A program made the translations under genes and the position numbers. Shown here piece by piece: positions 16,909 through 44,371 of a stretch of 64,000 nucleotides of DNA. Position 1 is the stretch's first letter; every line of letters starts with the position of its first letter. The DNA lies in assembly GCA_963700145.1 (NCBI GenBank), contig OY969474.1:3776001-3840000 (forward strand), given 5' to 3'. The notes under the pieces were generated by a model. That model did not search any database, was not told where the DNA came from, and was given only the letters and a program-made list of their open reading frames with translations. The stretch comes from an uncultured Acidobacteriota bacterium (GTDB taxonomy: Bacteria > Acidobacteriota > Thermoanaerobaculia > Multivoradales > UBA5704).

Positions 16909-19191
16909 ATGCAACGTCTTTCCCTCGCGGCCTTTGCCGCGGCCCTCTGGTTCCTCCCGCAGCCGGCCTCGGCGCGGGCGGTGGAGCCGGCCGCGCTGCT
17001 GGCCGACCTCGTCCCCGGGCCCGCGGGCTCCGTTCCATCGACTTTCACGAGCGTCGGCGACGTCGCCTTTTTCCGTACCGTCGATGCCTACCAGAACCCC
17101 GTCGAGCTGTGGCGCAGCGACGGGACGGCGGAAGGGACCTTCGGCCTCGGCGTCTGCCCCGCCGGCGCGCAGTATTCGCTGGCCTGGACCGAGGAGCACC
17201 TCTACTTCCTCGGCTTCGACGGCGGCTGCGTGATTGGCGAGTCCGCGGCCCTCTTCCGCACCGACGGCAGCCGCGAAGGGACCGTCAAGCTGACCCAGGG
17301 GCTCGCCTTCCCGCAGCCGACGGACGGCTGGCCGGCGGTCCGCTACGTGCCCGCGCTGCAGCGGCTCTTCTTCCGCGCCGACGACGGCGCGCACGGGCCG
17401 GAGCTCTGGGCGACGGACGGATCAGCGGGCGGAGCGGTGCCGCTCGGCGACCTGCGGCCCGGGCCCTCGGGTTCCACCCCGCGGCTGTTCCAGGAGCACG
17501 GCGGCGAGCTTTACTTCTGGGCCGAGCTGGAGCCGCAGTCGTTCTGGCTCTACCGGAGCGACGGCACGCCGGGCGGAACGGTCGCGGTGAAGGGGCCGTT
17601 TTCGGCGCCGAGGCAGGCGGTGACCCTTGGCGGCGCTCTCTACTTCCTGGCCTACTCGGGAAACGAGGCGGGCCTCTGGCGCTCCGACGGGACCCCCGCG
17701 GGCACGACCCTCGTAGCCGCGTTCCCAGGCGGGAGCTCGCTCTCCGCGCCGACGGCCGCCAACGGCCGTCTGTATTTCTCCCTCGAGACGCCCGACCACG
17801 CACAGGAGCTCTGGGTGAGCAACGGGACCGCCGCCGGTACGCGGCGGCTCACCGACTTCGCCAACCCGGAGGTGTTCGCCTCGGGCCCCCGCGTCACCGG
17901 CCTCGGCTCGCGCACGGTCTTCATCGCCGATCAGGGGTCGGACCTGGGGCAGGTATGGGGCACCGACGGCACGCCGGCCGGCACGCGGCGCCTCGTCCCC
18001 TGCGACGGCTGTGGCACCTCCTGGCTGGTCCAGGACGGCAGCCTCGCCTACTTCGCGTCGCGCGACGCCGTGCATGGCGAGGAGCTGTGGCGGACCGACG
18101 GCACGCCCCAGGGGACGCGCCTGCTGGCCGACGTCGCTCCCGGCGCCACCGGCTCCTCGCCCTTCGCGCCGTTCGCTCTCGGCGGGGGCGTCGCCTACCT
18201 GGCCGACGCGGACGGCCCGCAGGGCCCCGCCCGGTACCAGATGTGGTGGGTGCCGCGCGAGGGCGGCACGGCACGCAAGCTGACCGACCTTCCCGGGGAC
18301 TGGTGGGCCGCCCAGCTGGACGGTGCGTTCAACGGCGTCGCGATCGGCAGCCGCCTCCTCTTCCGCGCCAACGACGGTGTCCACGGCCCCGAGCTGTGGA
18401 GCGTCGCGGCGGAGGTCCCGGCCTGCGGCGGCGACGTCCTCTGCCTCGGCGCCGGGGACCGCTTCGCGCTCGAGATCTCCTGGCGCCTCGCCGACGGCAC
18501 GAGCGGCCGCGGCCACCCGCAGCGGCTCACCGCCGACACCGGCACCTTCTGGTTCTTCGGGCCGGACAACGTCGAGGTCGTCGCCAAGGTGCTCGACGGC
18601 CGCACCGTCAACCGCAGCTTCTGGCTCTTCTACGGCGCGCTCTCGGACGTCGAGTACACCCTGACGCTCACCGACCGGACGACGGGCGTCGTGCGCGAGT
18701 ACCGCAACCCTCGCGGCCGCATGGCCAGCGTCGCCGACACCGGGGCGATCGTGGACGCGGCGGCCGCGACGGGTGCGCTGGCGCTGGGCGGCGCGGCGGA
18801 GGAGATCGCGGCCGAGCTCGGCGCGGCGGTCGCGGCGGCCGGCGGCTCCTGCGTCGCCGACGCGCAGACCTTGTGCCTCCAGGACGGCCGCTTCCGCGTG
18901 CGGGCGACGTGGACCGACTTCTCGGGCAACCAGGGCGTCGGCAAGGCCGTGCGCCTCACCGCCGACACCGGCTACTTCTGGTTCTTCGGCGCCGATAACG
19001 TGGAGGTGGTGCTCAAGGTGCTGGACGGGCGGCCGGTCAACGACCACTTCTGGGTTTTCTACGGCGCGCTCTCTAGCGTCGAGTACGTGCTGACGGTCAC
19101 CGACACCGTGACCGGCGTCTCGCGCACTTACCGCAACCCCTCGGGGGAGCTGGCGAGCCGAGCCGACACCCGCGCCCTGCCCGCGGAGTAG
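16909..19191 (+). CDS. ELWxxDGT-repeat secreted protein with two copies of a conserved C-terminal domain
   Basis: AGGAG RBS and signal peptide; repeats ELWRSDGT, ELWATDGS, GLWRSDGT, ELWVSNGT, ELWRTDGT; two FWFF...NVEVV.KVLDG domains. This is the 3' part of ORF 15181..19191. Confidence 0.9.
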   Translation: MQRLSLAAFAAALWFLPQPASARAVEPAALLADLVPGPAGSVPSTFTSVGDVAFFRTVDAYQNPVELWRSDGTAEGTFGLGVCPAGAQYSLAWTEEHLYFLGFDGGCVIGESAALFRTDGSREGTVKLTQGLAFPQPTDGWPAVRYVPALQRLFFRADDGAHGPELWATDGSAGGAVPLGDLRPGPSGSTPRLFQEHGGELYFWAELEPQSFWLYRSDGTPGGTVAVKGPFSAPRQAVTLGGALYFLAYSGNEAGLWRSDGTPAGTTLVAAFPGGSSLSAPTAANGRLYFSLETPDHAQELWVSNGTAAGTRRLTDFANPEVFASGPRVTGLGSRTVFIADQGSDLGQVWGTDGTPAGTRRLVPCDGCGTSWLVQDGSLAYFASRDAVHGEELWRTDGTPQGTRLLADVAPGATGSSPFAPFALGGGVAYLADADGPQGPARYQMWWVPREGGTARKLTDLPGDWWAAQLDGAFNGVAIGSRLLFRANDGVHGPELWSVAAEVPACGGDVLCLGAGDRFALEISWRLADGTSGRGHPQRLTADTGTFWFFGPDNVEVVAKVLDGRTVNRSFWLFYGALSDVEYTLTLTDRTTGVVREYRNPRGRMASVADTGAIVDAAAATGALALGGAAEEIAAELGAAVAAAGGSCVADAQTLCLQDGRFRVRATWTDFSGNQGVGKAVRLTADTGYFWFFGADNVEVVLKVLDGRPVNDHFWVFYGALSSVEYVLTVTDTVTGVSRTYRNPSGELASRADTRALPAE

Positions 19192-19193
19192 CC

Positions 19194-20537: not shown

Positions 20538-20618
20538 CTCCGAAAAGCAGGCGCATTGTACGAGGGCCGCCGCAGGAAACCGCCGCTCCGGCGGTTCCTG
20601 GGTCCCGAGGAGGTTGCA

Positions 20619-20891
20619 ATGAGCACGAACCCGCGCACTCGTTGGAAACAGTGGACCAAGCTGCTGGCGCTGGCGGCGGTGCTCGCCGCCTTGGTCCTGG
20701 GAGCGGCGGCGCAGCGCGCCGCGGCCGATCAGCCGCACATGCAGGCGGCGCTCGACGCGCTCGAGGTCGCCGAGAACCAGCTCGAGCAAGCCGACAACGA
20801 CAAGGGCGGCCACAAGCGGCGCGCCCTCGAGCTGGTGCGCCGGGCGCAGGCGCAGGTGCGGGCAGGGATCGGCTTCGACCGCCGGCGCTGA
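20619..20891 (+). CDS. Small secreted helical protein
   Basis: GAGGAGG RBS; signal peptide; mature DQPHMQAALDAL...DNDKGGHKRRALELV. Confidence 0.8.
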   Translation: MSTNPRTRWKQWTKLLALAAVLAALVLGAAAQRAAADQPHMQAALDALEVAENQLEQADNDKGGHKRRALELVRRAQAQVRAGIGFDRRR

Positions 20892-20895
20892 GCGC

Positions 20896-21564: not shown

Positions 21565-21593
21565 GCCCCGACAGTACCCATCGCGGCGGGGAC

Positions 21594-21622
21594 TTGCAAT
21601 CCGGTTTGAAGGCGTCTAAGCT
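21594..21622 (+). promoter_or_regulatory. Sigma70-type promoter of the cold-shock gene
   Basis: TTGCAA (21594-21599), 17-nt spacer, TAAGCT (21617-21622). Implies a 5' UTR of about 230 nt. Confidence 0.6.
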
Positions 21623-21857
21623 CCGCGCCAACCGATCCGGACAAGCAGGGCTTCGACGACCACTTCCGCTCAACTACTCTCCAGTAGACCGTCGGCTCGC
21701 TTCAGCTCCAGAGGGACACGCACCACGTCGTACACCGTGAGCTCCCCGGCAATCGAGGGAACGAGTTCACCATCCGTACTCCCGTGTGGGAGTGGAGGAG
21801 AGCCGGACTGAGTCCGGCATATATCAACAACCTGTCTTATGAAGGAGCTGGGAGAGT

Positions 21858-22061
21858 ATGGCTGAGCAAGGTACCGTGAAGTGGTTCAACGACGCCAAGG
21901 GCTTCGGGTTCATCGTGCGCGAGCGGGGGGCGGACGTCTTCGTCCACCACACCGCGATCCTCGCCGAGGGGTTCCGCACGCTCAATGAGGGAGACCGCGT
22001 CTCCTTCGAGGTGGTGGAGGGCCCGAAAGGACTCCAGGCACGGAACGTCGTCCGCGTCTGA
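21858..22061 (+). CDS. Cold-shock protein (CspA family)
   Basis: [15 protein letters not shown] (RNP1), DVFVHH (RNP2), [10 protein letters not shown]. Confidence 0.97.
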
Positions 22062-22085
22062 GCCGCTTCCGACGACCATAACGTG

Positions 22086-22122: not shown

Positions 22123-22138
22123 TGGGGGTTTTGCTGCG

Positions 22139-29553: not shown

Positions 29554-29667
29554 TCAGGATCACAAGGCTTGCGGCGCCGCAGTGATCGGCGCCGCTACCC
29601 GTAGGGTCGCCGGCCGGAGCCGGCGATCGATCTCGATTGCGGGTTGTGGGTGCTAGATTGCCGCGCC

Positions 29668-30306
29668 GTGCCGCTCTTCGCGCGCGACGCGCCGCCGCAG
29701 CCGCCCGTCCGGCTCCACGTCGGCAGCGGCCGCGCGCGGCTCGAAGGGTGGGTCAACATCGACAACCAGGCGCTCCCCGGCGTCGACGTCGTCGCCGACG
29801 TCACCAAGGGGCTCGAGTTCAGCGACGTCGAGGCGGTCTTCGCCGAGCACTTCCTCGAGCACCTGCCGGTCGACGCCGCGCTCGACTTCCTGCTCGAGAC
29901 GCGGCGGGTGCTGGCCGACACGGGCTGGCTCCGCCTCTCGACCCCCAACCTCGACTGGGTCTGGGCGACGCACTACCGCCTGGAGGCCGACGCCGAGACG
30001 AAGCGCTTGGCGGCGCTGCAGCTCAACCGCGCCTTCCACGGCTGGGAGCACAAGTTCCTGTGGAACCGCGAGCTGCTCGGCGAGGCCCTCCTTGCCTGCG
30101 GCTTCCGCGCGCCGCGCTGGTGCCGCTGGGGGGAGAGCGAGCTGCCGGTCTTCCAGGGGATCGAACGGCACGAGACCTACGGCGACACCCCCGAGCTGCC
30201 GCACGTCCTGATCGCCGAGGCGTGCAAGGGCGACCCGCAGCCGGAGCGCCTCGCCTCCCTCCGCGACCTCCTCCAGCGCGAGTTCCTGCTCCACCTCAAG
30301 GGTTAG
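29668..30306 (+). CDS. Class I SAM-dependent methyltransferase (Methyltransf_11-like)
   Basis: RLHVGSG..LEGWVNID, EHFLEHL, RVL..GWLRLSTP. Start set at GTG 29668. Confidence 0.8.
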   Translation: MPLFARDAPPQPPVRLHVGSGRARLEGWVNIDNQALPGVDVVADVTKGLEFSDVEAVFAEHFLEHLPVDAALDFLLETRRVLADTGWLRLSTPNLDWVWATHYRLEADAETKRLAALQLNRAFHGWEHKFLWNRELLGEALLACGFRAPRWCRWGESELPVFQGIERHETYGDTPELPHVLIAEACKGDPQPERLASLRDLLQREFLLHLKG

Positions 30307-30368: not shown

Positions 30369-31361
30369 ATGCCTTTGCGCCGCGCCGTCCTCTCCCTCGC
30401 GCTCGCCGGTCTCGCCGCTCCCACCGCCGCGGCCGAGCCGGTCCATCAGGGCGCCACGTCCGTCCTGGCCGAGCCGGTCGCCACCCCCCAGTGTGGGGGC
30501 GGCGTGGTCTACGACGACGGCGTCTTCAACATCGGGTACACGGTGGGCCCGGGAGACGCCGCGATCGTGATGAAGCTCAATCTGCTGGCCGGCACGACGA
30601 CGCTCGACCAGGCTTGCATCTGCTTTTTCCGCGACGGGTCCGGCCCGTCGTTCATGTACTTCGAGGTCGTCGTCTACGACGACAATGGTGCGGGCGGTCA
30701 GCCGGGCACGCCGCTGGGGACGGTGGCCGCGACGGCGAGCTCCCTCGGCATCAACGACCCGGAGTTCTTCTCGGTGGACCTGACGGGCTCGGGGATCGTG
30801 CTGCCGGACACCAGCGTCTTTGTCGGCGCGCGCTTCCCGGGCTTCGCGGGGATCTTCCTGTGCGGCGACACCTCGCCGGCGACGGCGCAGCGCACCCAGT
30901 TCGGCAGCGGCAACGGCGGAGCGACGTGGAGCAACATGACGGCGCTCAACGTCGGGAACCCCCCGCGCGCCATGGGCATCCGGGCGGACCCCGCGGCGGC
31001 CACCGCCGCCTGCGTGCCGAGCGCGACGGCGATGTGCCTGAACAACGACCGCTTCCGCGTCTCGGCCACCTTCGACACCGGCACCCAGTCCGGGCAGGCG
31101 CACGCGGTCGAGCTGACCGACGACACCGGCTACCTCTGGTTCTTCAGCGCCACTAACGTCGAGGTGGTGATCAAGATCCTCAACGCCTGCGTTCCGGCGG
31201 TCGGCAACCGCTACTGGGTTTTCGCCGGCGGGCTGACGAACGTCAACACGGTGATCACCGTCACCGACACCCAGGCGGGGATCTCGAAGACCTACACCAA
31301 CCCGCCCAACACGAAGTTCCAGCCGATCCAGGACACCGCCGCCTTCGCCACCTGCCCGTGA
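30369..31361 (+). CDS. Secreted protein with the conserved C-terminal domain ending in TCP
   Basis: GGAGG RBS; signal peptide MPLRRAVLSLALAGLAAPTAAA; VVYDDG beta-rich N-domain; C-terminal DTGYLWFF..NVEVVIK domain. Confidence 0.85.
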   Translation: MPLRRAVLSLALAGLAAPTAAAEPVHQGATSVLAEPVATPQCGGGVVYDDGVFNIGYTVGPGDAAIVMKLNLLAGTTTLDQACICFFRDGSGPSFMYFEVVVYDDNGAGGQPGTPLGTVAATASSLGINDPEFFSVDLTGSGIVLPDTSVFVGARFPGFAGIFLCGDTSPATAQRTQFGSGNGGATWSNMTALNVGNPPRAMGIRADPAAATAACVPSATAMCLNNDRFRVSATFDTGTQSGQAHAVELTDDTGYLWFFSATNVEVVIKILNACVPAVGNRYWVFAGGLTNVNTVITVTDTQAGISKTYTNPPNTKFQPIQDTAAFATCP

Positions 31362-31972: not shown

Positions 31973-32030
31973 TTTGGCGCGCTCGGAGGTAACAACACCT
32001 TCCAAGGAGACCGGCCGCCAGAGGGGGTAG

Positions 32031-33272
32031 CTAAGAAATCCCTTCCGGAGCTGTGGCTTCGGCCGGTACCGCCGCCGGGCGCGTCGGCTCCTCGCGCACC
32101 TGGCGGGTGAGGACCGAGACGCCGAGCATCAGCGTCGCGGCGATCCAAAAGGGGTAGCGCGGGTCGAGCTGGTAGGCGAGGCCGGCCATGAGCGGGCCGA
32201 CCATCTTTGAGACGCCGCCGAAGGACTGCTGGACGCCGAGCGCCTGGCCAACCTCGCGCCGGGGCACCAGGCGCGAGACGAGCGCGGTGGTCGCGGGGAA
32301 GAGGAGGGCGGTGCCCACGGGCACGAGGACGACGGCGAGGGCGAGCAGCGGCAAAGTCTTCATCAACGGCAGCACGAGCAACCCGGCGATCAGGGCCAGC
32401 GCTCCCAGCCGCAGCGCGCCGACCTCGCCGAAGCGGCGCACCGCCGGCCCGAGGAGGAAGGCGCGCATCACGACGTTGAGGCCGCCGATGTAGACGAAGA
32501 AGTAGCCGATCGTGTTCTCGGTGATCTTGAAGAGGTTGCCGAGGTAGAGCCCGAAGATAGTGTTCATGGCGAAGAAGGCCATCATCCCGACGGCGTAGAC
32601 CCAGACCAGCGAGGAGACCGGCGCGAGCGGGTGGCGGAGCACCTCGAAAATCGAGCGGCGCACCGAGCGGCGGGCGGCCGGCGCCGGGGCGCCGGCCGGC
32701 TCCTCATGCGGCGGAGGCTCGGAGAGCCACAAGAAGCCGGCGGCGATGTTGACGAAGCAGATGGTGGCGGCGACGAAGCCGGGGGCGTGGGGACCGAGGT
32801 TGCGCGACAGCGAGCCGGCGGCGGCGCCGAGCGTGACGCCGATGTTGGTCGCCACGGTCAGCCAGCCGAGCGCCTGCGTGCGGTCGCGCGACGGCACCGA
32901 GTCGGTGACATAGGCCTGGACGACGCCTACGATGCCGCCCCCCACCCCCTGCAGCAGGCGCATGAGGAAGAGCACAGGCAGGGTGTCCGCGAGGCCGAAG
33001 GCGAGATAGGCGAGCGCCGAGGCGGTGAGACCGGCGAGGATCATCGGCCGCCGCCCGTAGCGGTCGGAGAGGCGCCCCCAGAGCGGCGCGGTGGCGAGCT
33101 GGGCAAAGGGGTAGCAGGCGTAGAGGACGCCGTAGAGCGCCGGGCTGGCGCCGAAGCGGGTGGCGTAGAAGGGGAGCAGCGGCACGACGATCATCGTGCC
33201 GAACATGTCGGCGCCGAAGATCGCCATCAGCACCCAGAGGCTACGCAGCGAGGCCCGGTCGGAGGTGGTCAC
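32031..33272 (-). CDS. MFS transporter (TetA/DHA1-like)
   Basis: Motif A WGRLSDRYGRRP; IVVPLLPFYA; GTGA overlap with the upstream permease. Confidence 0.92.
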   Translation of the reverse strand: MTTSDRASLRSLWVLMAIFGADMFGTMIVVPLLPFYATRFGASPALYGVLYACYPFAQLATAPLWGRLSDRYGRRPMILAGLTASALAYLAFGLADTLPVLFLMRLLQGVGGGIVGVVQAYVTDSVPSRDRTQALGWLTVATNIGVTLGAAAGSLSRNLGPHAPGFVAATICFVNIAAGFLWLSEPPPHEEPAGAPAPAARRSVRRSIFEVLRHPLAPVSSLVWVYAVGMMAFFAMNTIFGLYLGNLFKITENTIGYFFVYIGGLNVVMRAFLLGPAVRRFGEVGALRLGALALIAGLLVLPLMKTLPLLALAVVLVPVGTALLFPATTALVSRLVPRREVGQALGVQQSFGGVSKMVGPLMAGLAYQLDPRYPFWIAATLMLGVSVLTRQVREEPTRPAAVPAEATAPEGIS

Positions 33273-34924
33273 AGCTCGCGCCCCTCGCCGCGCAGCGCGA
33301 AGGCGCCGGCCGAGGCCGCCATCAGCAGCACGCCGTAGGCGGCGGCGAGCCCCAGCTCCTGGAGGCGCAGGCCGGAGAGGATCTCGATGGCGATCGGGCG
33401 GGTCTCGAAGGTGTAGAGGACGATCGAGGTCACGAAGTCCCCCAGCGCGGTGACGAACGCCAGGGCGGCGCCGGCGGCGACGGCCGGGCGGAGCAGCGGC
33501 AGGGTGATACGGCGCAGCCGGCGGAAGGTTCCGGCGCCGAGCGAGGCGGCGGCCTCGTCGAGCGCCGGGTCGAGCTGGCGCAAGCCCGCCAGCGCCGCGC
33601 GGCCGGTCAGCGGCAGGCCGCGCACCAGGTAGGCGAGCGGCAGGATGAGCGGCGTGCCGATGAGCAGGAACCGCCCCTGCCAGGGGGCGTTGACGCTCAT
33701 CGCCACCGCCAGCGCCACCGCGAAGACGGTGCCGGGGAGCGCCCAGGGGACGGCGAGGAGCCCTTCGAGGAGCGTCGCCAGCCGCCCGCCGCGCCGGCGG
33801 GCGACGAGCGCGGCCGCCAGCCCCAGCGCCAGCGCGGCGGCGGTGGCGGCGGTCGCCATCCACAAGGAGTTGGCGATCGGGCGCAGGCGCTCGGCCGAAG
33901 AGAAAAGGGTGCGCCAGTTGCCGAGGTCGAGGACCGGCGGGAAGGGCTCGGCGGTCCAGGTGAAGGGCGGCACGAAGGAGAGGAGGACGAGAACCGCGTG
34001 CGGCAGCAGCAGGAAGGCCGCCGCCAGGACCGCCAAGCCGCCGACCGCCCAGCGCGCCGGGCCGGCGAGCCGGCGCCGCCGGGGCGGCACCCCGCGGGTG
34101 CCAGCGACGCGCTCGGCGCGGCGGTCCGCGCGGCGCATGGCGGCCAGGCCGAGCAACGCCAGCGCCGCCAGCGTCACCGTCTCGACCTGCGCCAGCGCGT
34201 CGTCGCCGTTGAGCTTCGAGGCCACGATCTGCGTCGTCATCACCCGGAACGAGCCGCCGAAGAGGTAGGGCGCCGAGAAGGAGGCCAGCGCGGTCATGAA
34301 GGTGAGGAGCGCCGCGGTCGAGAGCGCCGGCCGCAGCAGCGGCAGGGTGACACGCCGGAGCGTGCGCAGCCGCCCGGCGCCGAGCGAGGCGGCAGCCTCG
34401 AGGAGCGACCCGTCCATGCGCGCCAGCGCGGCGCGGGTGAAGAGGTAGAAGAAGACGTAGAACGAGTAGGTGTGGACCAGCAGGATCGCCCCCGGCCCGG
34501 CGAGCCGCCAGGGGGGCGCCGCCAGGCCGAGCGCGGCCTGCACGGCGCGGGTCGCGAAGCCGCTCTCGCCGAAGAGGAAGAGGAAGGCGATCACCCCGAC
34601 GAGCGGCGGCAGGGCAACCGGCAGCGCCGCCGCGGCGCCGAGGAAGCGGCGGCCGGGGAAGTCGGCGCGCTCGAAGGCGAAGCCGAGCGGCACGCCGACG
34701 GCGGCGGCGAGGACGACCGAAGCGGCCGAGGTCCAGAGACTGCGCCAGAGGGCCAGCCACTCGTCGGGCCGGGCGGCGAAGGCGCGCAGGTGGGCCAGCG
34801 TCCAGCCGCCGGGGCCGCCGAGCGCCTCGCCGAAGGTGACGAGGAGCGGCCAGCCGACCAGCCAGGCGAGCAGGACGGCGAGGGCGGCGGCCGCGAGGGT
34901 CAGCGCGCGGCGGCGGCCGGTCAT
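33269..34924 (-). CDS. ABC transporter permease (FbpB/ThiP-like, duplicated domain)
   Basis: Two EAA motifs (LLEAAASLGA, LDEAAASLGA); ALPPLVG. Confidence 0.92.
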   Translation of the reverse strand: MTGRRRALTLAAAALAVLLAWLVGWPLLVTFGEALGGPGGWTLAHLRAFAARPDEWLALWRSLWTSAASVVLAAAVGVPLGFAFERADFPGRRFLGAAAALPVALPPLVGVIAFLFLFGESGFATRAVQAALGLAAPPWRLAGPGAILLVHTYSFYVFFYLFTRAALARMDGSLLEAAASLGAGRLRTLRRVTLPLLRPALSTAALLTFMTALASFSAPYLFGGSFRVMTTQIVASKLNGDDALAQVETVTLAALALLGLAAMRRADRRAERVAGTRGVPPRRRRLAGPARWAVGGLAVLAAAFLLLPHAVLVLLSFVPPFTWTAEPFPPVLDLGNWRTLFSSAERLRPIANSLWMATAATAAALALGLAAALVARRRGGRLATLLEGLLAVPWALPGTVFAVALAVAMSVNAPWQGRFLLIGTPLILPLAYLVRGLPLTGRAALAGLRQLDPALDEAAASLGAGTFRRLRRITLPLLRPAVAAGAALAFVTALGDFVTSIVLYTFETRPIAIEILSGLRLQELGLAAAYGVLLMAASAGAFALRGEGREL

Positions 34925-36003
34925 GCTCCCTCGCGGCGAAAGATCCTGGGCAAGGCGGCGCCGGCGCGCGGGCCGACGTGCACCGTCTCTCCCGCCGCCG
35001 CCGCGTGCGGGCCGGAGAGCACCTCCAGCTCCGCGCCGTTCGCGAGCGCCACGGTGTAGTAGGTCCCCTGCCCGGCGTAGCGCCGCTCGACGACGCGGCC
35101 GGGAAGGGCCTCGAAGCCGCCGCGCGGGCGGAGCTCCAGCGCCTCCGGCCTCACCAGCAGCTCGACCGCATCGCCGGGCGCCAGGCCCTCCGCCGTCTCC
35201 TCCCCTGCCCAGACAACTTCGCTGTCGCCGGCCGCAATCCGCACCCGCCCCGCGCCGCCGTCCCGGCCCGCGAACGTCCCCGCCAGCGCACTCGCCCGCC
35301 CGACGAAGCCGGCGACGAAGCGCGTCTCCGGCCGCTCGTACAGCTCCTCCGGCGTCCCCACCTGGTGGAGCCGCCCGCCGCCGAGCACCGCCACCCGGTC
35401 GCCGAGGTGGAACGCCTCCTCCTGCTCGTGGGTCACCAGCACGGTCGTGATCCCCACCCGGGCCAGCGTCCGCCGCAGCTCGCGGCGGGTGCGCTCGCGC
35501 AGCGACGGGTCGAGGTTCGAGAGCGGCTCGTCGAGGAGCAGGAGGCGCGGCTCGGGGGCGAGGGCGCGGGCCAGCGCCACGCGCTGCTGCTGCCCGCCCG
35601 AGATCTCGCCGACGCGGCGGTCCTCGAAGCCGGGGAGGTCGACGCTCCCGAGCGCCGCCGCCACCCGCGCCGCCGCCTCGGCGCGCGGCAGGCGCAGGCC
35701 GAAGGCCACGTTCTCGCCCACCGACAGGTGCGGGAAGAGGGCGTAGTGCTGGAAGACCATGCCGACGTTGCGGCGCGCCGGCGGCAGCGGGTCGAGCCGC
35801 TCGCCGTCCACCAGGATGCGCCCGGCGTCGGGCGTCTCGAAGCCGGCGAGGAGGCGGAGGAGGGTGGTCTTGCCGCTGCCGGAGGGGCCGAGGAGGGCCA
35901 GCACCTCGCCGCGCCCGACGGCGAGGGCGACGCCGTCGAGCACCTTGTGGCCGCCGAAGCGCTTGCTCAGCCCGTCGAGGACGAGGAACGGCGGCGGCGT
36001 CAT
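34921..36003 (-). CDS. ABC transporter ATP-binding protein (FbpC/PotA-like)
   Basis: [31 protein letters not shown]-like tail. Start ATG 36003. Confidence 0.93.
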
Positions 36004-37016
36004 CCCCGGCCGCGCACCGTGCGGTCCCAGGTCGCCATCCACTCCTGGGAGCGCGCTTCGATGAGCTTCCAGTCGACCGGCGCCGGCACGAGCTGCGCCG
36101 AAACCTCGCGCGCCCAGGCCGGCAGCCGCTCGGGCGGGATGTCGGTGCGCGCCGGCAGGCGGAAGGCCTCGCGCGCGGCGAGGAGCTGCGCCTCCTCGCT
36201 CCCCACCCACTCGACGAAGGCGCGCGCCGGCTCGGGGTGGCGGGCGCCGCGCACCAGGCCGAGCGAGTCGTCGATCACCGGCGTGCCGCTCGCGGGGAAG
36301 GTGAAGGCGAGCGGCGAGCCGCGCTTCTGCTGCCAGAGCATGTCGGTCAGCTCCCAGACCGTGATCAGCCCCTCGCGGCGGTTGAGCTTCTCGAGCAGCA
36401 GCGCGGGGTTGAGGACGTACTCCTTGGTCTGCGCGTCGAGGCGGCGGAGGAACTGCCAGCCGGTCTCCTCGCTGCCGGTCTCCTGCACCGAGAGCGCGAG
36501 CACCATGCCGAAGAGGATGCGCATGGTGCCGCTCGCCAGCGGGTCGCGGATCAGCATCTTCTTGCGCCAGCGCGGGTCGAGGAGGTCCCCCCAGTCGCGC
36601 GGCGCCTCGGCCGGCGGCACCACCGCGGCGTTGTAGACCAGGACCGGGGCGGTGCGGTAGGAGGCGAGGTAGCGGTCCTGCGGATCGCGGCTTCCCGCAG
36701 GCACGGCCTCGGCCCAGCTCGGCCGGAACGGCGCCAGCAGCCCCTCGCGGGCGCCGCGCGCGAAGATCGTCTGCGGGCCGCCGAACCAGACGTCGGCCTG
36801 CGGGTTGGCGGCCTCGGAGCGCAGGCGGTCGTAGACCTCCTGCGAGCCCATGTCGAGCCAGCGCACGTCCACCTCCGGATGGCGCTCCTCAAAGCTGCGC
36901 TCCATGAGCTGCAGGAGGTCGCGGCCGTGCGGCGAGTAGACGACCAGCGGGGTCTTGCCGTCGCCGCAGCCGAAGAGGGCGGCGGCGAGGACGGCCGCGG
37001 CGAGAGACGGGCGCAT
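36000..37016 (-). CDS. ABC transporter substrate-binding lipoprotein (Fe3+/thiamine class)
   Basis: Lipobox LFGC; [34 protein letters not shown]. Confidence 0.9.
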
Positions 37017-37030
37017 GGCGAGCGGGCAGT

Positions 37031-38470
37031 TTACCGTGGCGGCAGCATCGTCCCGGGGCGGCGGCGGTAGATCGTCAGCTCCCCCGGCCCGTCGCGGTCG
37101 CGGAAGCGCACCGCCTCCTCGAAGGCGGCAGGGAACCAGGGCTGCCGCACGAGCGGGCGCATCCGGCCGCGGGTGTGGAAGACGACGACGTCGGCCGGCG
37201 CGGCGAGGAAGGCGCCGGCGATGTCGCGGCTCGCCACGTAGGGGCGCGCCGCGCGCGTCACCAGGCCCATCAGGTCGACGATCCGGCGCTCGCTCTCCCA
37301 GCCGAGGACGCCGATCTCGACGTAGGCGACGGAGGTCTCCGGCGGCGTCCGCTCGCGCAGCCAGGCGCCGGCGCGGCGGTAGGTGTCGAGGTGGCCGTAG
37401 CCGTTGAAGCCGCGCGCCCAGGTCCAGGCGGAGCGGACGACGGGCCAGGCGAGGAGGACGGCGAGGAGCGCCGCCGCCGCGAAGCCGGCGGCGGGTCGCC
37501 AAGCGCCGAGCCGCCGCGCGACGGCGAACGGCACCGCCGCGAGGCCGTAGAGGAGCGCCGCCGCGAGCGGCACCAGGTACCAGGAGAAGAACGGCACGCC
37601 GAGCAGCGTGTAGGCGAGCGCCACGGCGCCGGCGTAGAGCACGAGGAGGCGCCCGGCGCGGCCGCTCTCGCGCCAGAAGGGGACGAGGCCGGCGGCGCCG
37701 AGCGCCAGGAGCCACCCCCACCAGGCTCCGAAGTGACGCGGCGCCAGGCGCGCGGCGCGTTGCCAGAAGAAGCGCGCCGCCTCGACGCCGCCGCCGGTCG
37801 CGGCGAAGGCGTCGGCGCGCTTGGCCGCCGCGGTCTCCGGCAGCGGCGTCCCGAACCAGGCCCAGGCGGCGAGCAGGCCGGCGGCGACGACGGCGCCCGC
37901 GGCGACGGCGTAGCGGCGCGGGAAGCGCCGCTCCTCCCACCAGACGAGGAGACCGAGGAGCGCGGCGCCGGCGAGGGCGTCGGGGCGGCACCAGGCGGCG
38001 GCGCCGGCGAGGAGCCCGGCCAGTGCCGGCCGGTCGCGGGAGGCGAGCGCGGCGCCGGCGAGGAGCGCCAGGACGAGCGTGGCCGCCGAGCCGTGGTTGG
38101 TCCAGACGTAGGACGAGGCGAGGAGCAGGGTGCCGCCGAGCGCGGCCGGCGCGCGCGCCCGCGCGTCGAGGAGGAGCAACACAGCGAGCGCCACGAGCGC
38201 GGCGGCGTAGACCACGCTGCCGAGCCGCGGCAGGTCGGCGCCCGTCGCCGCGTGGACCGCCGCCAGCAGCAGGCCGAGCCCCGGCTCGGAGAGGCCGAAG
38301 ACGCGCTCGCCCGGATTGAACACCAGCCCTTCGCCGCGCGCCACATTCCGTGCGTAGCAGTAGGTGATGTAGAGGTCGTCCTGGGCGCGGCCGTCGAGGT
38401 GGAGGACGAAGAGCGCGGCGAGGAGGCCCCAGAGAGCGAGCAGCGCGGCGGCGGCGATCCTCCTCGTCAC
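37031..38470 (-). CDS. GT-C membrane glycosyltransferase (AftB-like)
   Basis: [49 protein letters not shown]. Confidence 0.8.
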
Positions 38471-40101
38471 GGCGCGCCGGCCCCGCTCGCCGGCCGGTCC
38501 CACTCCCGCCGCCGCTCGAGCTTCCGGCAGGAGTCCGCGGCGGCGCCGCGCCGGCGGCGGTAGACGACGGTCTGGTAGCCGTCGTCGTACAGCTCGGGCG
38601 CGGGGCGGCCGAAGCGGAGCCAGCCCTCTTCGGGCGGCCGCGCGCCGCGCACCTTGATCAAGAGGAAGGGCGCGTAGCAGGCGCGCAGCCGCACCGGCGT
38701 GCGCCCCAGCCCGGCGGTGCGCGGCACGCCGTCGCGCCGCACGCCGCTCAACAGCAGGTCGGGGCGGCGGTCGAGCACGTAGTGCGGGTCGTACTTCTCG
38801 TGCGCCACGGTGCGGAAGCCGCTGGTCAGCGGCGGCAGGTGGGCGATGTGCTCGTCGGCCAGGCCGTACATGTCCACCGTCGGCCGTCGCGAGTAGTAGG
38901 GGACGATGCCGGCGCCCCCGGTCGCCACCAGGGCGCCGGGGGGCGTCTTCTCGCGGATCCAGTGGGCGAGGCGGGTCCAGGACTCCATCTCCAGGGCCAG
39001 CCCCTCGAGGCGCGACAGCCGCTCCGGCCAGGAGAGCCAGAGGGCGGCGGCGACGAGCGCCGCGGCGGCCGCGGCGCGCACCGCCGCCGCGGGGCGCGGC
39101 GCCAGCGCGGCGGTCACACGCCCCAGGCCTTGCGCCGCGAGGATGAGCAGGAAGGGAAGCGCCGGCAGCAGGAAGCGCGGCCCGAAGAAGGGCAGGAAAT
39201 CGCCGCCCACCCAGAGGAAGTAGGCCACCGTCGCCGCGATCCAGCCCCAGCCGAGGAGCGCGAAGCAGTCGCGGCGGAGCGCCGGCAGGGTGACGAGCGC
39301 CAGCAGAAGCAGCGGCCAGGCGTTCCACTGCCCCATGAGGACGAGGAGCTGCTCGGCGCCGCGCCCGATCCGGCTCCAGGTGAAGCCGGTGGCCTTGACG
39401 TAGAACGTGTTGGGCAGGAGCCACCCGTAGTAGGCCCAGCGCCAGAGGAAGTAAGGAAGGTAGAGCGCGGTGAAGGCGGCGCCGAGGCGCAGCGCGCCGC
39501 GCCGCCGCTCCCTGACGTCGCCCGGCCCCCGGAGCAGCGCCCAGGCCGCGGTCAGCAGCCAGTAGACCCCGCCCTCCGGCCGTGTCATCGCGGCGAGCGC
39601 GAAGGCGACACCGGAGGCGATGGGCCGCCGCGCCACGAGCAGCCGCTCGAGGGCGAGGAGGAGGAGCGCCGCGAAGAGGAGGGTCTCCATCCCCGAGACG
39701 ACGAAGCGCGGCTGCGAGCCGAGGGCGGCCCAGAGGAGCGGCGGCAGTGCGGCGAGGAGCGGGCTCTCTGGCAGCACCGTGCGCGCCAGCCGCGCCAGCA
39801 GCACGATCGCCGCGATCCCCGCCGCCCCCGCGAGTGCCACCGAGAGCAGCGGCAGGTCGAGCCCCAGCGCGGCGCCGCCGGCGAGGAGCAGGGTCCAGAG
39901 GAAGTTGGTGTAGCCCTCGACCTTCTCTCCTACATTGAAGACGAGGCCGTGCCCCTCCGCCAGGTTGGCGGCGTAGCGGAAGGAGATGAAGGCGTCGTCG
40001 ACGAGGAGGTAAGGGTCCCAGAGGTGGGCGGCGCGCGCCAGCAGCAGCGCCGCCGCGGCCGCCGCGGCGAGAAGCGCGGCGCTAGCGCCCTGCGCCCGCA
40101 C
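38467..40101 (-). CDS. GT-C membrane glycosyltransferase (AftB-like)
   Basis: [61 protein letters not shown]. Confidence 0.85.
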
Positions 40102-42739
40102 GGTCGGCCAGCGCCAGCAGGTTCGCCAGCAGCCGGTAGGCGCCGGGGACGCCGGCGGGGATCTGCCGGAAGAAGGCGAGGCCCGTGTAGACGTAGGTGC
40201 CCTCGCCGAGCGGCGCCACCAGCAGGCCGCCGCGCAGCTCCGGCCCGCCGGGGTCGGCCATGGCGAGGAGCGGCGTGTAGGCTGGGTCCCAGGTGTTGGC
40301 GAAGTAGAGGCCGCGCTCCTGCACCCACCCCTCCCAGTCCGCCGGCCCCAGCCGGTTGGGCGTGGTGAAGACCGGATGGTCGGGGACGAGCGGCACGACC
40401 GGCGCGTTCTCGTCGGTGACGCGGTCGTGCGGCCGGGCGATCTCCAGCGGGTAGGGCGTGAGCTTCCCCTCGACGAACGCATACTGCTGGTACTGGACGA
40501 CGAGCAACCCGCCCCGTCGTACGTAGTCGAGCAGGCGGGCGTTGGCCCGCGCCAGCGCCGGCTCGGTCTCGTAGGCGCGGCTGCCGACGACGATCGCGTC
40601 GTAGCCCGCGAGGTCGCCGGCGGCCAGCTCCTCGGCCGCGAGCAGCTCGATCGGCAGCCCGACGGCGCGCAGGAACTCCGGCACGCGGTCGGAGGCGCCG
40701 CGCACGTAACCGACACGCTGCAGGCGCGGCAGCGCCAGCTCGGTGGCGCTGATCTCGACCCGCGCCGGCCGCAGCGTCGGCGTCGGCGGCACGTGCTCGT
40801 GCTCGACGAGCGGCAGCGCGGCGGCGAAGCGGCGGCCGTCGGCGAGCACGGCCTCGACCGCGTAGGCGGAGCGCCCGGGCGCCAGCTCCCGCGGCGGCGT
40901 GAGCTGCAGCGCGACCGTCTGCCGCTCGCCGGGCGCCAGGGTGAAGGGGCGCGGCGGCACCGGCGGCCAGCCCGGCGCGGGCGGGCGCGGCACCGGGTCG
41001 GGCCGGGCACTGACCTCGCCCTGAAGCGGGACCGCGGCGCGCGAGACGAGCGTCACCTCGACGATGCGCGGCGCGCGTTGGTCGATCGGCCAGAGGATGA
41101 GCGCGGGCTCGACCGTCACCTCGACCGCCGGCACCACCCGCAGCGGCCGGCGGATCTCGCCGCGCGCCTGGTCGCCGACGCGGTAGACCACCTCGCGCTC
41201 GAGCGTCACCGGCTGGCCGGCGATCTCGAAGTCGAAGCGGGCGACGAGCGGCGGCGGCTCGAACGGCTCGCCGCGCACCTCCGCCGGCGCGCCGCTCCAG
41301 TCGTAGAGCGCGTCGCGCAGCGGCGCGCGCAGGAAGTAGGGGAGGGTGGGCTCGGCGCCGGCGGGGACCGGCAGCGCGAGGTCGAAAGTGGCCAGCTCGC
41401 CGGCCGCGACCGCCTTGACGCCGCCGACGACCGGCCACTCCGCCGCCGGCACCAGCGCGACGTTGACCGCGGCGAGCGGCTCGGCGCCGCTGTTCCAGAG
41501 TGCCAGCTGCACCTTCAGCTCTTCGCCGGCGGTGACCGTCTCGCGCGCCGCCGCGGCCTCGACGGCGATCCCCGCCGCTGCGGCCAGCCCGGACTCGGCG
41601 ATCGCCGCCTTCTCGGCGACGAGCTCCGCCGCCTGCCGCTCGGCGTCGCCGGCGCCCGGACCCTCCAGCTCGGCCTGCGCCGCCCGCAGGTGCCCGAGCG
41701 CCGCGGCGAGCCCCGGCACCGCCGCCGCCAGCCGCGCCGGGTTGAGCTCGGCGCGAGTACGCGCCGCCGCCTCCTCGGCGGCCGCGAGGTGCGCCGCCAC
41801 GCGCTCCCGCCGCGCCGCGTTCGCGATCCCCGCCGCGATGCCCTGCAGACGCGTGTCGACGCCGGCGAAGAGGTCCTTGGCCGCGGCGCCCTCCCCGCCC
41901 TCGACCCACGCGACGCGCGCCTGCCGCGGCCCGAGGTCGAGCAGCCGCCCCATGTCCTGCGAGCGGTGCTCGCTGCGGCTCGCCATAGCGAGCTGGAAGA
42001 TCGAGCGGCCGGTGAGCCAGTCGATGACGCCGGTCTCGAGGGTCAGCGTCGTCGCCTCGCGGTCGAAGCCGGTCGAGCGGTAGAGCGCCCGCGGCCGCCA
42101 GGGCGGCAGCCCTTCGGCCAGGAGCTGCGGCACGGCCGCCGGATCGCCGGCGGCGCGATAGCCCTCGTGCGCCATCACCCCGGCCGCCTGGTGCTGACCG
42201 TGGTTGGGGTGCGGCGTGCCGCGGAAGACCGACACCACGACCTGCGGCTTGAAGCGGCGGACGACGCGCACCACGTCCTCGAGCAGCACCTCGCGCGGCC
42301 AGCGCGCGAGCGTCTCCTCGAGCGACCGGGTGTAGCCGAAGTCGTAGGCGCGGGTGAAGAACTGCCGGCCGCCGTCGATCGTGCGCGCCGCGAGGAGCTC
42401 CCGGCTGCGCAGGATGCCGAGCTCGACGCCCAGTTCCGAACCGATCAGGTTCTGCCCCCCCTCGCCGCGCGACAGCGACAGGTATGCCGCCTCGCCGCCC
42501 CGGCCGCGCGCCACGAGCGTCAGGAGCTGTGTGTCCTCGTCGTCGGGGTGCGCGCCGACGACCAGCAGCCGTTGGTGCGTGACGAGCCGCGCCAGTGCCC
42601 GCTCGACGGCCGGGAAGCCGCCGGTCCCCGGCGGCTCGAGCGCCGGCGGCGCCGCGCCGGCCCCGGCGCGCGGCGGCGCGGCGAAGGCGGCGCTGAGGAA
42701 GAGAAGAAGGGCGGCGAGCGCCCGCACGGTTCGCGGCAT
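40082..42739 (-). CDS. PIG-L/LmbE family deacetylase, secreted, multidomain
   Basis: [26 protein letters not shown]; C-terminal [10 protein letters not shown]; signal peptide. Confidence 0.92.
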
Positions 42740-42862
42740 GAGGTCTCCGGGGTGGCGCGGCGCGGCAGTCTAGCAGCGCACTCCTCAACGCATTGACGGC
42801 CGGCGGCGTAGACCTTGCAGCAAGAACACGCCACACCTCGTGGCACCCACAGGAGAAAATCG

Positions 42863-44371
42863 ATGCACCGGAGTCCCCTTCTCTTCCCCCGGCAGCCGCA
42901 CGCCCTCGTCCTGGCCGGCGCGCTGCTCCTCGCCGCGCTGCCCGCGCAGGCGGCCCTCTTCACCCCGACGCAGACCGCCGACGACGACGGCGCCTGCGAC
43001 GCCTCCTGCTCGCTGCGCGAGGCGATCCTCGCCGCCAACGACAACCCCGGGGCCGACGTGATCCTGCTCGGCCCGGGTGTCTACAGCCTCTCGCTCGCCG
43101 GCGCCGGCGAGGACGGCGGCGAGACCGGCGACCTCGACGTCACCGGCGACTTGACGCTCGTCGGCGACAGTGCCGCGAGCACCGTCATCGACGGCACCGG
43201 CAGCGGCGACCGCCTGATCGACGTCCACGGCGCCCGCCTCGAGCTGACCGGCGTCACCCTGCGCGACGGCGGCGGCGCCGGCAACGGCGGCCTGCTCCAC
43301 AACCTGGGCGGCGAGCTGATCGTCTCGCGCAGCATCCTGACCGCCGGACGGGTACTGGGCGCCGGCTCCTTCGGCGGCGCGATCTACAGCGACGGCGCCC
43401 TCTCCGTGGCCGAGAGCACGCTGCGCGGCAACACGACCGGCGGCAGCGGCGGCGCCGTCGCCGTCAAGGAAGAGCTCGCTCTCGTCAACTCGACGCTCTC
43501 CGACAACCAGGCGGGCGCCTTCGGCGGCGGCCTCTACGTCTTCGCCGACGTCGCCGGCGACGTGTCGAACACGACGATCGCGGCGAACGCGGCCGGCCAG
43601 GGCGCCGGCGGCGTCTTCGTCGAGAGCGCCGCGTTCCTCGGCGGCAGCCCCAAGTTCCACAACACGATCGTCGCCGGCAACACCGCCCTCGCCGACCCCG
43701 ACTGCAGCGGCTCGGCGGACTCGCTCGGCTTCAACCTCGTGGGGGTCGGCGGCGGGTGCTTCGACTTCACCGCCGCGCACCAGGACCTCGTCGGCACGGC
43801 GGCCGCGCCGCTCAACCCGCAGATCGGCGCGCTCGGCGCCAACGGCGGCCCCACCCCGACCCACCTGCCGGCGGCGGCCAGCCCGGCGGTCAACGCCGGC
43901 AACCCGGCGGCGCCGGGCAGCGGCGGCGCGGCCTGCCAGCCGATCGACCAGCGCGGCGCCGACCGGCCCGGCACCCCCGGCACCCGCTGCGACGTCGGCG
44001 CCGTCGAGCGCACCACGGCCTGCGTCCCCGGCGGCGCCAACCTCTGCCTGGAGCAGGGCCGCTTCCAGGTCACCGCGAAGTGGACGATCCAGTCGGGCCA
44101 GACCGGCGCCGCGCAGGCCGTGCAGCTCACCGACGACGCCGGCTACTTCTGGTTCTTCTCGCGGGAGAACATCGAGGTGACGGCGAAGGTGGTCAATGCC
44201 TGCGTCCCGGCCTTCAACCGCTTCTGGGTCTTCCTCGCGGGCATGACCAACGTCAAGGTCGACATCACCGTCACCGACACCAAGACCGGCCAGGTGAAGA
44301 CCTACACCAACCCCCAGGGCCGCACCTTCCGCACCATCCTCGACACCCAGGCCTTCAACACCTGCCCCTAG
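42863..44371 (+). CDS. CSLREA / choice-of-anchor Q beta-helix surface protein with the conserved C-terminal domain
   Basis: CSLREAI, GDLDV, GGAIY repeats, NGGPTPTH...DQRG...CDVGAVE; C-terminal domain ending AFNTCP; AGGAG RBS. Confidence 0.9.
   Translation: MHRSPLLFPRQPHALVLAGALLLAALPAQAALFTPTQTADDDGACDASCSLREAILAANDNPGADVILLGPGVYSLSLAGAGEDGGETGDLDVTGDLTLVGDSAASTVIDGTGSGDRLIDVHGARLELTGVTLRDGGGAGNGGLLHNLGGELIVSRSILTAGRVLGAGSFGGAIYSDGALSVAESTLRGNTTGGSGGAVAVKEELALVNSTLSDNQAGAFGGGLYVFADVAGDVSNTTIAANAAGQGAGGVFVESAAFLGGSPKFHNTIVAGNTALADPDCSGSADSLGFNLVGVGGGCFDFTAAHQDLVGTAAAPLNPQIGALGANGGPTPTHLPAAASPAVNAGNPAAPGSGGAACQPIDQRGADRPGTPGTRCDVGAVERTTACVPGGANLCLEQGRFQVTAKWTIQSGQTGAAQAVQLTDDAGYFWFFSRENIEVTAKVVNACVPAFNRFWVFLAGMTNVKVDITVTDTKTGQVKTYTNPQGRTFRTILDTQAFNTCP

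Follow-up and report, generated by a model that had tools for sequence, protein, structure and literature searches.

An unnamed terminal module on secreted proteins of Thermoanaerobaculia and its possible role as a paired attachment handle

Three otherwise unrelated genes of an uncultured Acidobacteriota bacterium encode secreted proteins that end in the same domain. What is this domain, how widely is it used, and is it a signal for export, a means of attachment or a device for self-assembly? These questions are addressed here starting from the window, that is, the whole analysed stretch of 64,000 nucleotides.

Module copies and carrier genes in the window

The features are listed in Table 1. 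The other three copies are 60, 36 and 41% identical to the first one (18415-18753), and the similarity is beyond chance, since a profile of the four finds 40 further copies in the same genome (see below). The four copies on three Sec-type secreted proteins, initially noticed in the sequence alone, are real, and their coordinates agree within about 10 bases. The Sec signal peptide and the unrelated passenger described ahead of the module were likewise seen in the carriers.

Table 1. Module copies, carrier genes and the adjoining anchor-family domain (positions in the window)
Feature	Position	Strand	Evidence
ELWxxDGT-repeat protein gene, secreted, 760 aa	16909..19191	+	ELWxxDGT_rpt TIGR04534, E 3.4e-79
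Module copy 1, tandem subtype, 2 Cys	18415-18753	+	translation; profile E 7.9e-52
Module copy 2, tandem subtype, 2 Cys	18841-19188	+	profile E 5.8e-58; stop codon 3 residues on
Secreted-protein gene, 330 aa, one C-terminal module	30369..31361	+	signal peptide; translation
Module copy, single subtype, 4 Cys, TCP directly before stop	31002-31358	+	E 2.3e-60
CSLREA / choice-of-anchor Q protein gene, secreted, 502 aa, one C-terminal module	42863..44371	+	
Choice-of-anchor Q domain, abuts module	43814..44011	+	G000:C1:3819814-3820011, 61.9 bits, above curated cut-off
Module copy, single subtype, 4 Cys, TCP end	44012-44368	+	E 3.5e-61

Sec-like N-termini were observed in all three carriers: MQRLSLAAFAAALWFLPQPASARA in the ELWxxDGT protein (start 16909), MPLRRAVLSLALAGLAAPTAAAEP in the 330-aa protein (start 30369) and MHRSPLLF...ALPAQAA in the CSLREA protein (start 42863). 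Signal peptides were called by our own hydrophobicity heuristic and by eye rather than with SignalP. In the ELWxxDGT protein the signal peptide at the N-terminus is complemented by a tandem pair of modules at the C-terminus. The passenger of the 330-aa protein matches no family in Pfam and NCBIfam (0 families). The CSLREA protein matches CSLREA_Nterm (E 7e-08) and choice_anch_Q (E 6.6e-16) in NCBIfam, and its module starts at 44012, directly after the end of the choice-of-anchor Q domain at 44011. Hence, it has the choice-of-anchor architecture, with an anchor-family domain immediately ahead of the C-terminal module. The beta-helix family PF13229 is present in close homologues of this protein.

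The two subtypes distinguished earlier are recovered from the cysteine patterns. Tandem copies mostly contain two cysteines (positions 4 and 12), whereas 14 of 18 single copies contain four (positions 4, 12, ~64 and ~117), the second pair being characteristic of this subtype, and most of these 14 end in TCP. The N-terminal cysteines, spaced Cys-x6-7-Cys, are probably joined by a disulfide. Conserved aromatic residues of the module are FWFF, W72, F74 and Y98. C-terminal copies in the window's own genome end in ...TCP or ...DTxAF, 0–9 residues ahead of the stop codon, and the module has neither a transmembrane helix nor a basic tail. First and second copies of the tandem pairs do not form separate clades and thus give no visible sign that the pair is an old, fixed arrangement.

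Searches for a known family or fold

Only Pfam (2025) and NCBIfam 20.0 were used as sequence-family libraries. The four window copies match no relevant family there at E≤0.1, the sole rows being DUF7867 (13.8 bits at a cut-off of 27) and PRK05965 (12.7 bits at a cut-off of 729). Any one family is matched by at most three of the 44 copies of the own genome (see below), and the best E in the search of PDB sequences was 0.33. At the outset no named family was recognised for the module, and a search of Pfam, NCBIfam and PDB sequences provides none either.

The copy at 44012-44368 was the input sequence for structure and dimer predictions. Its AlphaFold model has pLDDT 97.3 and pTM 0.90, and the module is predicted to be an all-beta domain of ~115 aa with 9–10 strands. 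Foldseek yielded no PDB matches at E≤1e-3, with TM-scores of 0.39 or less. In the comparison with ~48,000 chains by VIA-align, the best score for the single module (Z 6.9, rmsd 2.8, 81 residues) was at the background level of the tool, and the tandem model (rmsd 2.6, 83 residues aligned) also stayed within the background range. The weak neighbours, all with background-level scores, were 7vma_B (Z 6.9), 5xq3_B (6.2) and 6ptm_A (5.7). The nearest ESM Atlas clusters comprise hypothetical proteins without a name or a common Pfam family. The structural check suggested along with the first description thus gave a confident fold and no clear structural match.

The module could be a very divergent member of a characterised fold or family, e.g. 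half of a beta-supersandwich or an Ig-like accessory domain. The weak VIA-align likeness (Z 5–6.9) to supersandwich domains and to the coat proteins of leviviruses points in this direction, as does the restriction of the sequence search to two libraries. However, neither the four copies (at E≤0.1) nor the 44 gave a sequence family in Pfam and NCBIfam, even a consistent weak one, and the low Foldseek TM-scores and the unnamed ESM Atlas neighbours further argue against this reading, which we consider very improbable.

Occurrence, passengers and position in the protein

The sequence-only reading proposed to build a profile from the four copies and to count its matches per genome. In the window's own genome (5.46 Mb, single contig) this profile finds 44 copies in 31 ORFs, the 40 further copies having E from 7e-47 to 2e-4. 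Among 41 genomes of the order, the own genome included, 40 have matches (2–84 per genome). The complete genome G028 of this order contains no copy and several genomes contain only two, hence the module is dispensable. A metagenome protein library contains 10,735 matching cluster representatives at E≤1e-3, 6,408 of them at E≤1e-30. All 76 loci kept in the scan of named genomes belong to uncultured Acidobacteriota or Thermoanaerobaculia, and every named carrier comes from uncultured metagenome-assembled genomes. Both the genomes of the order and the named-genome scan agree with the lineage specificity claimed initially. The module is real, abundant, lineage-restricted and without a name in the libraries searched.

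Thermoanaerobaculia are widespread, almost entirely uncultured Acidobacteriota of soil and sediment. In this genome ~31 secreted proteins carry one and the same unnamed module, the genome of a relative yields up to 84 matches, and the protein clusters containing the module number more than 10,000. With a family model one could annotate much of the predicted exoproteome of the lineage, identify the occupant of the "anchor" position in the choice-of-anchor proteins found here and define a testable target, the ligand of the paired module.

The passengers are diverse. Proteases are represented by metzincins with FN3 domains, an S8 subtilase and a trypsin-like protease; other passengers include a PHB-depolymerase-like esterase, a GH39-like enzyme, PAP2, LamG and plastocyanin-Calx-FN3. 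Carriers of choice-of-anchor B (E 5e-119, locus L051) and P (E 3.4e-18, locus L033) domains have the module at the C-terminus; the NCBIfam names of these families presumably reflect the alternative C-terminal anchors that they carry. A clear Sec-like N-terminus was found by our heuristic in 27 of the 31 own-genome ORFs, and these N-termini together with the conserved Cys pairs suggest that the module is extracytoplasmic.

A C-terminal position of the module was seen in 30 of the 31 own-genome ORFs, in 127 of the best 150 library representatives (of 10,735) and in 55 of 57 homologues. In the rest of the best 150 it is located right behind the signal peptide (18 proteins) or internally (4), or makes up most of the protein (1); N-terminal pairs are followed by ~100–660 further residues. 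At the loci from named metagenome-assembled genomes, the module is not C-terminal in 11 of 83 ORFs. The claim that it is always C-terminal therefore stands for the window (3 of 3 proteins) and fails for the family, given 18/150 N-terminal and 4/150 internal cases. Tandem pairs occur in 13 of the 31 own-genome ORFs; among the best 150 representatives, 147 have two copies and three have four. Three of ten short proteins inspected (P0237, P0254 and P0261) consist of a signal peptide and the module alone.

The module could act as a folded C-terminal signal for export or sorting that a putative outer-membrane translocon or sortase of Thermoanaerobaculia would recognise, with possible cleavage and replacement by a lipid or glycan anchor. 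The C-terminal bias (85–97% of proteins), with the last copy 0–9 residues before the stop codon in the own genome, would also suit such a signal. Moreover, single-copy forms end exactly at TCP and the stop codon, the module follows choice-of-anchor domains, ~31 substrates per genome include T9SS-like cargo (proteases, glycosidases, adhesin-like repeats), and in a diderm lineage Sec substrates need a route across the outer membrane. On the other hand, the tandem pairs, the four-copy proteins, the pair at the mature N-terminus in 18 of 150 representatives and the domain-only proteins without cargo argue against a T9SS-like export tag. The genomic neighbourhood also provides no partner: no neighbour family recurs at more than 4 of the 31 own-genome loci, no candidate cognate enzyme is conserved beside them, and no export machinery is encoded near the three window genes. 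The export option of the sequence-only reading thus lost ground, and we regard it as quite unlikely.

The closest known analogues of such a signal are the C-terminal domains of T9SS (Por_Secre_tail TIGR04183/PF18962; type B CHU_C). Like the module, they are folded, all-beta, ~80–120 aa long and C-terminal, mark dozens of Sec-dependent hydrolases and adhesins per genome, are lineage-restricted and may follow choice-of-anchor domains. In contrast to their one copy at the extreme C-terminus, the module is found in tandem, in fours, at the N-terminus and alone. T9SS is known from Bacteroidota and allies, and the lineage of the module is Acidobacteriota. The module has no match to TIGR04183/PF18962, nor has the whole genome at E≤0.01; SprA_N (PF14349) gave no hit in the genome, the control of this search being likewise silent in all 14 control genomes.

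Behind the choice-of-anchor B, P and Q domains, the module takes the usual place of the short tripartite sorting signals PEP-CTERM/exosortase, LPXTG/sortase, GlyGly-CTERM and MYXO-CTERM. It differs from them in being predicted as a folded beta domain with the ...TCP or ...DTxAF end and no motif-helix-basic tail. A regular-expression search revealed no credible PEP-CTERM tail in the genome; the PEP-CTERM HMM search gave zero matches, with the search control silent too. One exosortase-like gene is present in the genome.

Pairing of modules and candidate functions

The homodimer prediction scored 0.55, the best control being 0.01. In the calibration, the 0.55 mark was reached by 20 of 30 solved one-chain pairs and by 1 of 23 solved single chains; these counts are only a rough guide since the prediction used our own alignment, and up to ~19 in 100 monomers may pass. 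The dimer runs share at least 95% of their contacts, and partner pLDDT is 92 or higher. The model of the tandem pair has pTM 0.85 despite a disordered linker, and, with pTM taken as an indirect proxy for domain packing, this suggests to us that the two copies are packed in a fixed arrangement. The dimer interface (mean column identity 0.52) shows no stronger conservation than the remainder of the module (0.54, Mann-Whitney p 0.66), hence conservation gives no backing to a universal pairing surface. Judging by the models, the working unit of the module appears to be a pair, and the homodimer prediction, having passed its controls, speaks for the self-assembly option suggested earlier.

The homodimer score and the tandem pTM, as well as the Cys pairs suggesting a rigid extracellular fold, could also be explained by a pure oligomerisation or stabilising domain, which may pair different carriers and has no separate ligand. 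However, in the tandem proteins, the commonest high-scoring architecture, the interface is satisfied within one chain and no oligomer results. Moreover, the interface shows no special conservation, and it is not obvious why monomeric enzymes such as subtilases would need to dimerise. This makes a purely oligomeric role improbable.

We favour, with a probability of roughly 45%, a paired attachment handle, that is, Sec-exported terminal modules holding diverse secreted proteins on one shared target. Sec would export the module together with its carrier. In the mature protein the module would be terminal, as a rule at the C-terminus and in some cases right after the signal peptide. The pair would be formed within one chain in tandem-type proteins and by dimerisation in single-copy ones. 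It would serve secreted hydrolases, proteins with adhesin-like repeats and choice-of-anchor proteins as a common handle, in the manner of SLH, dockerin or carbohydrate-binding modules, and the shared target would most likely be an envelope or matrix polymer of the producing cell itself. Fold and pairing in this scheme are model predictions; attachment as the function and the ligand are inferred. A handle of this kind for surface display or secretion would show how proteases, esterases and glycosidases stay at the cell surface, and a possibly new fold would join the protein-anchoring modules.

A bolder version, which seems doubtful to us, is that the module is a new-fold recognition handle of an undescribed surface-display system of Thermoanaerobaculia, its pair docking in a receptor or envelope polymer, or else being taken up by a new outer-membrane export route. 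If so, an acidobacterial counterpart of the dockerin-cohesin or T9SS C-terminal-domain system, homologous to neither, would arrange dozens of hydrolases and adhesins on the surface of each cell.

The target might instead be external, the module being a lectin- or CBM-type domain that aims enzymes at plant, fungal or microbial polymers, other outside surfaces or mineral-bound organic matter instead of the envelope of the producer. The terminal position, 1–4 copies, the many hydrolase passengers and the conserved aromatic residues are consistent with this, and most of the weak structural neighbours are accessory domains of the beta-sandwich type from glycoside hydrolases and lyases. But those structural scores are at the background level, no Pfam CBM family is matched, and the cupredoxin, PAP2, protease, choice-of-anchor and ELWxxDGT propeller-like passengers have no obvious common substrate. 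We hold external targeting to be unlikely.

As for the attachment handle favoured here, dockerins of cellulosomal enzymes are similar in that a terminal module is common to many unrelated secreted enzymes of one genome, is mostly C-terminal and sometimes N-terminal or internal, has a duplicated or paired binding unit and, as we read the module, serves assembly or attachment rather than export. Dockerins are ~70-aa calcium-binding helical EF-hand-like repeats, whereas the module has 115 aa and is predicted to be all-beta. The neighbour analysis of own-genome loci, which yielded no recurrent family, gave no candidate for a cohesin-like partner. SLH, LysM, CBM and PPC domains likewise form 1–4 terminal repeats, at the N- or the C-terminus of secreted or surface proteins, and bind an envelope polymer or substrate non-covalently, so that diverse passengers are tethered to it. 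The use of the module may be likened to this, although the module has no sequence or clear structural similarity to these domains. PPC (PF04151) itself is found in some relatives alongside the module, not replacing it.

Module copies in the window and in its genome

Translation of the three ORFs agrees with the sequence-only reading, which had described them as secreted proteins sharing a C-terminal domain. All three begin with a Sec-like signal sequence, as judged by a hydrophobicity heuristic and by eye rather than by SignalP. In the alignment of the four module copies, some 115 residues long, 30 columns are invariant and identity to the first copy is 36–60%. In the CSLREA protein the choice-of-anchor Q domain ends at window position 44011, where the module adjoins it. 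The coordinates are collected in the table.

The four-copy profile was run against the window's own genome (a single contig of 5.46 Mb, about 73–75% G+C) and yielded 44 copies. These occupy 31 ORFs (read stop to stop), of which 13 hold a tandem pair and 18 a single copy. The module is thus a real family and not a chance resemblance. A signal-peptide-like start was clear in 27 of the 31 ORFs and ambiguous in one. The remaining three (L035, L037 and L058) have no recognisable start; their upstream parts resemble out-of-frame translation rich in Arg, Ser and Thr, and they may be frameshifted genes or genes whose starts were missed.

Two subtypes, anticipated from the window copies, are borne out at this scale. 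Tandem copies usually have just the Cys4/Cys12 pair and a YGALS-like strand, whereas 14 of the 18 single copies have a second Cys pair (Cys~64 in NAC/DGC and Cys~117), most of these ending in TCP at the stop. On the maximum-likelihood tree the copies of the single type group together (4 label changes vs 14.1 with shuffled labels); no such separation is seen between first and second tandem copies.

Coordinates of module-bearing genes, module copies and related ORFs (window, the 64,000-nt stretch; C1, the contig of the window's genome, G000)
Feature	Sequence	Position	Strand	Basis or remark
ELWxxDGT-repeat protein gene	window	16909-19191		TIGR04534, E 3.4e-79
Module copy	window	18415-18753		translation and alignment
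Module copy	window	18841-19188		translation and alignment
233-aa ORF	window	29605-30303	+	strong coding periodicity
Gene of 330-aa module protein, passenger matching no family	window	30369-31361		family searches
Module copy	window	31002-31358		translation and alignment
CSLREA and choice-of-anchor Q gene	window	42863-44371		CSLREA_Nterm E 7e-08; choice-of-anchor Q E 6.6e-16
Module copy	window	44012-44368		translation and alignment
DUF4394 protein	window	about 47000-47809	+	PF14339, E 1.1e-21
ORF with module directly behind signal peptide	C1	40759-41898	minus
L035	C1	326612-328693		no recognisable start or signal peptide
L037	C1	493785-496217		no recognisable start or signal peptide
L038 and L039, adjacent paralogues	C1	661586-663281		overlapping ORFs
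L049 and L050, adjacent ELWxxDGT-repeat genes	C1	2547405-2554476		about 1,185 aa
L058	C1	3999778-4002036		no recognisable start or signal peptide
Second choice-of-anchor Q protein	C1	4301928-4303550	minus	541-aa open frame, outside the window

Placement, passengers and taxonomic range

The module had been said to be always C-terminal. This holds for 30 of the 31 own-genome ORFs, where the last copy ends 0–9 residues from the stop; in the exception the module stands directly behind the signal peptide and is followed by about 227 residues. Across the family the rule fails. Among the best 150 library representatives, a set skewed to tandem proteins because two copies give a higher score, 127 are C-terminal, 18 have an N-terminal tandem pair right behind the signal peptide followed by about 100–660 residues, four are internal and one is nearly domain-only. 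Homologues of the single-copy type are C-terminal in 55 of 57 cases, and of the 83 ORFs at loci of named metagenome-assembled genomes, 72 have it C-terminally and about seven N-terminally. The library protein P0004 carries four copies. Ten short proteins were inspected: three (P0237, P0254 and P0261) are complete and consist of a signal peptide and one module only, while the other seven resemble internal-start or partial gene calls.

The passengers are diverse. In the own genome they include ELWxxDGT repeats (four of six such proteins carry the module), the choice-of-anchor families B, P and Q, TSP3 repeats, proteases (three or four metzincin-FN3 proteins, an S8 subtilase and a trypsin-like protease), other enzymes (a PHB-depolymerase-like esterase, a GH39-like enzyme and PAP2), LamG_3, a plastocyanin-Calx-FN3 protein and several matching no family. 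LRR, PPC, BNR, PKD, NHL, M64 and DUF4394 were recorded in relatives, whose NCBI names (CSLREA, choice-of-anchor Q, M64 peptidase) reflect the passengers only.

In each of the paralogues L038 and L039 the module is combined with a signal peptide and a small Ig-like passenger. The two module copies hardly differ (tree branch lengths 0 and 0.06), which points to tandem gene duplication in the very recent past. L049 and L050 each have a C-terminal tandem pair, and similar gene pairs lie about 3.5 kb apart in relatives (e.g. G009:C328, G015:C24 and G023:C4).

The module is restricted to one lineage. With the profile of all 44 own-genome copies, it was found in 40 of 41 genomes of the same order, the window's own included, at 2–84 matches each; G034 and G039 have two matches each, and only G028 (100% complete, 4.9 Mb) has none. 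Across the phylum, evenly sampled, just 14 of 151 genomes have it, a count that takes in G063, flagged as unpublished. Beyond this order and a single additional family of the class, the genomes that have it show 1–3 matches each, and outside the order the presence of the module follows relatedness. Among the 1.84 billion cluster representatives of a protein library, 10,735 match at E<=1e-3, 6,408 of them at E<=1e-30. The scan of one-genome-per-species contigs confirmed 453 out of 537 candidate stretches; the 76 loci retained all belong to uncultured metagenome-assembled genomes labelled Acidobacteriota, Thermoanaerobaculia or (NCBI) 'Holophagales'.

Predicted fold and pairing of modules

The absence of a named family, noted from the window, was confirmed against Pfam-A, NCBIfam and PDB sequences. 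The four window copies had no relevant match in Pfam-A and NCBIfam at E<=0.1; at E<=1 no Pfam family matched more than three of the 44 own-genome copies, and a profile search of PDB sequences gave chance rows only (E 0.33 and 1.3). In the titles and abstracts of the literature matches listed we found no description of the module and nothing relevant on ELWxxDGT or choice-of-anchor proteins, on C-terminal or uncharacterised secreted domains of Thermoanaerobaculia, or on C-terminal sorting domains of Acidobacteriota; the CSLREA papers among the matches listed concern Acinetobacter only. The module is therefore undescribed in these libraries and at the title and abstract level of this literature.

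AlphaFold2 with the 44-row alignment predicted an all-beta domain of 9–10 mostly sequential strands (pLDDT 97.3, pTM 0.90). Foldseek found no PDB match to the single module model at E<=1e-3 (TM-scores <=0.39). An exhaustive VIA-align comparison with 48,161 chains was topped by 7vma_B (Z 6.9, rmsd 2.8, 81 residues aligned), a background level according to the tool notes, followed at Z about 5–6, also background, by supersandwich accessory domains and levivirus coat proteins. Neither tool gave a clear fold for the tandem model, and the ESM Atlas matches are unnamed Acidobacteriota clusters of 122–161 aa. The modelled fold may be new; a weak or absent PDB match is no proof, and a divergent known fold, compatible with any reading of function, seems very unlikely.

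The model of the window's tandem pair (67-row alignment) reached pLDDT 90.9 and pTM 0.85, with pLDDT below 50 in the linker (residues about 121–131). We take the high pTM as an indirect indication that the two copies would be packed in a fixed mutual arrangement. For the single-type module a homodimer prediction passed its controls (score 0.55 vs 0.01 for the best control), with contact agreement between runs of at least 95% and partner pLDDT of at least 92. Of 30 proteins solved as one-chain pairs 20 attained that mark, as did 1 of 23 single-chain structures; these counts are only rough here because our own alignment was the input. The predicted symmetric interface comprises residues 39–45, 52–54, 57, 59, 74–78, 80, 105–108 and 110. 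It was rejected as the conserved surface of the domain (conservation 0.52 vs 0.54 for the rest, p 0.66); being no better conserved than the rest, it gives the pairing no independent support from conservation. A pure dimeriser, which the dimer prediction taken by itself would suit, seems very unlikely.

Possible role in attachment or export, and gene context

The sequence-only reading had proposed a sorting, export or anchoring module. Tandem and quadruple copies, occasional N-terminal placement, cargo-free proteins and the lack of a linked enzyme count against a tag dedicated to export at the C-terminus, as in the T9SS. Neighbouring genes up to 8 kb away show no family shared by more than four of the 31 loci. 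The own genome has no match to the T9SS C-terminal domain, none to SprA_N (control silent too) and none to the PEP-CTERM HMM (control silent too); 15 raw matches to the PEP-CTERM regular expression included none credible. One exosortase-like match and two secretins were found. An export or sorting signal appears improbable. The same four features are typical of non-covalent binding and assembly modules such as SLH, dockerin and CBMs. A lectin or CBM for an external substrate would share them and is unlikely: given how varied the passengers are, and that the module follows domains of three choice-of-anchor families, it more plausibly retains its carriers on a target that they share on the cell's own surface or in its matrix than directs them to a single external substrate. 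From this context we infer anchoring, and we regard the module as a paired attachment handle with a probability of about 0.45. It belongs to the shared terminal modules of secreted proteins, among which it stands out because it is abundant, confined to one lineage and confidently modelled without a clear structural relative.

The second choice-of-anchor Q protein of the own genome lacks the module and ends in a different stretch of about 130 aa, which includes 'TPCRVVDTR' and closes with 'VGYFQ'; the 'anchor' position is thus also taken by a second, unrelated folded element.

The neighbours of the three window genes are housekeeping and transport genes (among them DUF885, an erythromycin-esterase-like gene, enolase, an ABC transporter, PIG-L and the 2-oxoglutarate dehydrogenase E1 component). 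The 233-aa ORF, which has no Pfam match, lies directly 5' of the 330-aa module protein gene on the same strand, and the two may be co-transcribed. The window DUF4394 protein, downstream of the 2-oxoglutarate dehydrogenase gene, lacks the module; a homologue elsewhere, P0193, is annotated with DUF4394 and was hit by the module query as well. AT skew is strong at window 32001-40000 and 56001-60000 (+0.30 and +0.22 across the minus-strand transporter gene block, -0.25 across 56–60 kb) and probably reflects strand-specific codon usage in this G+C-rich genome.
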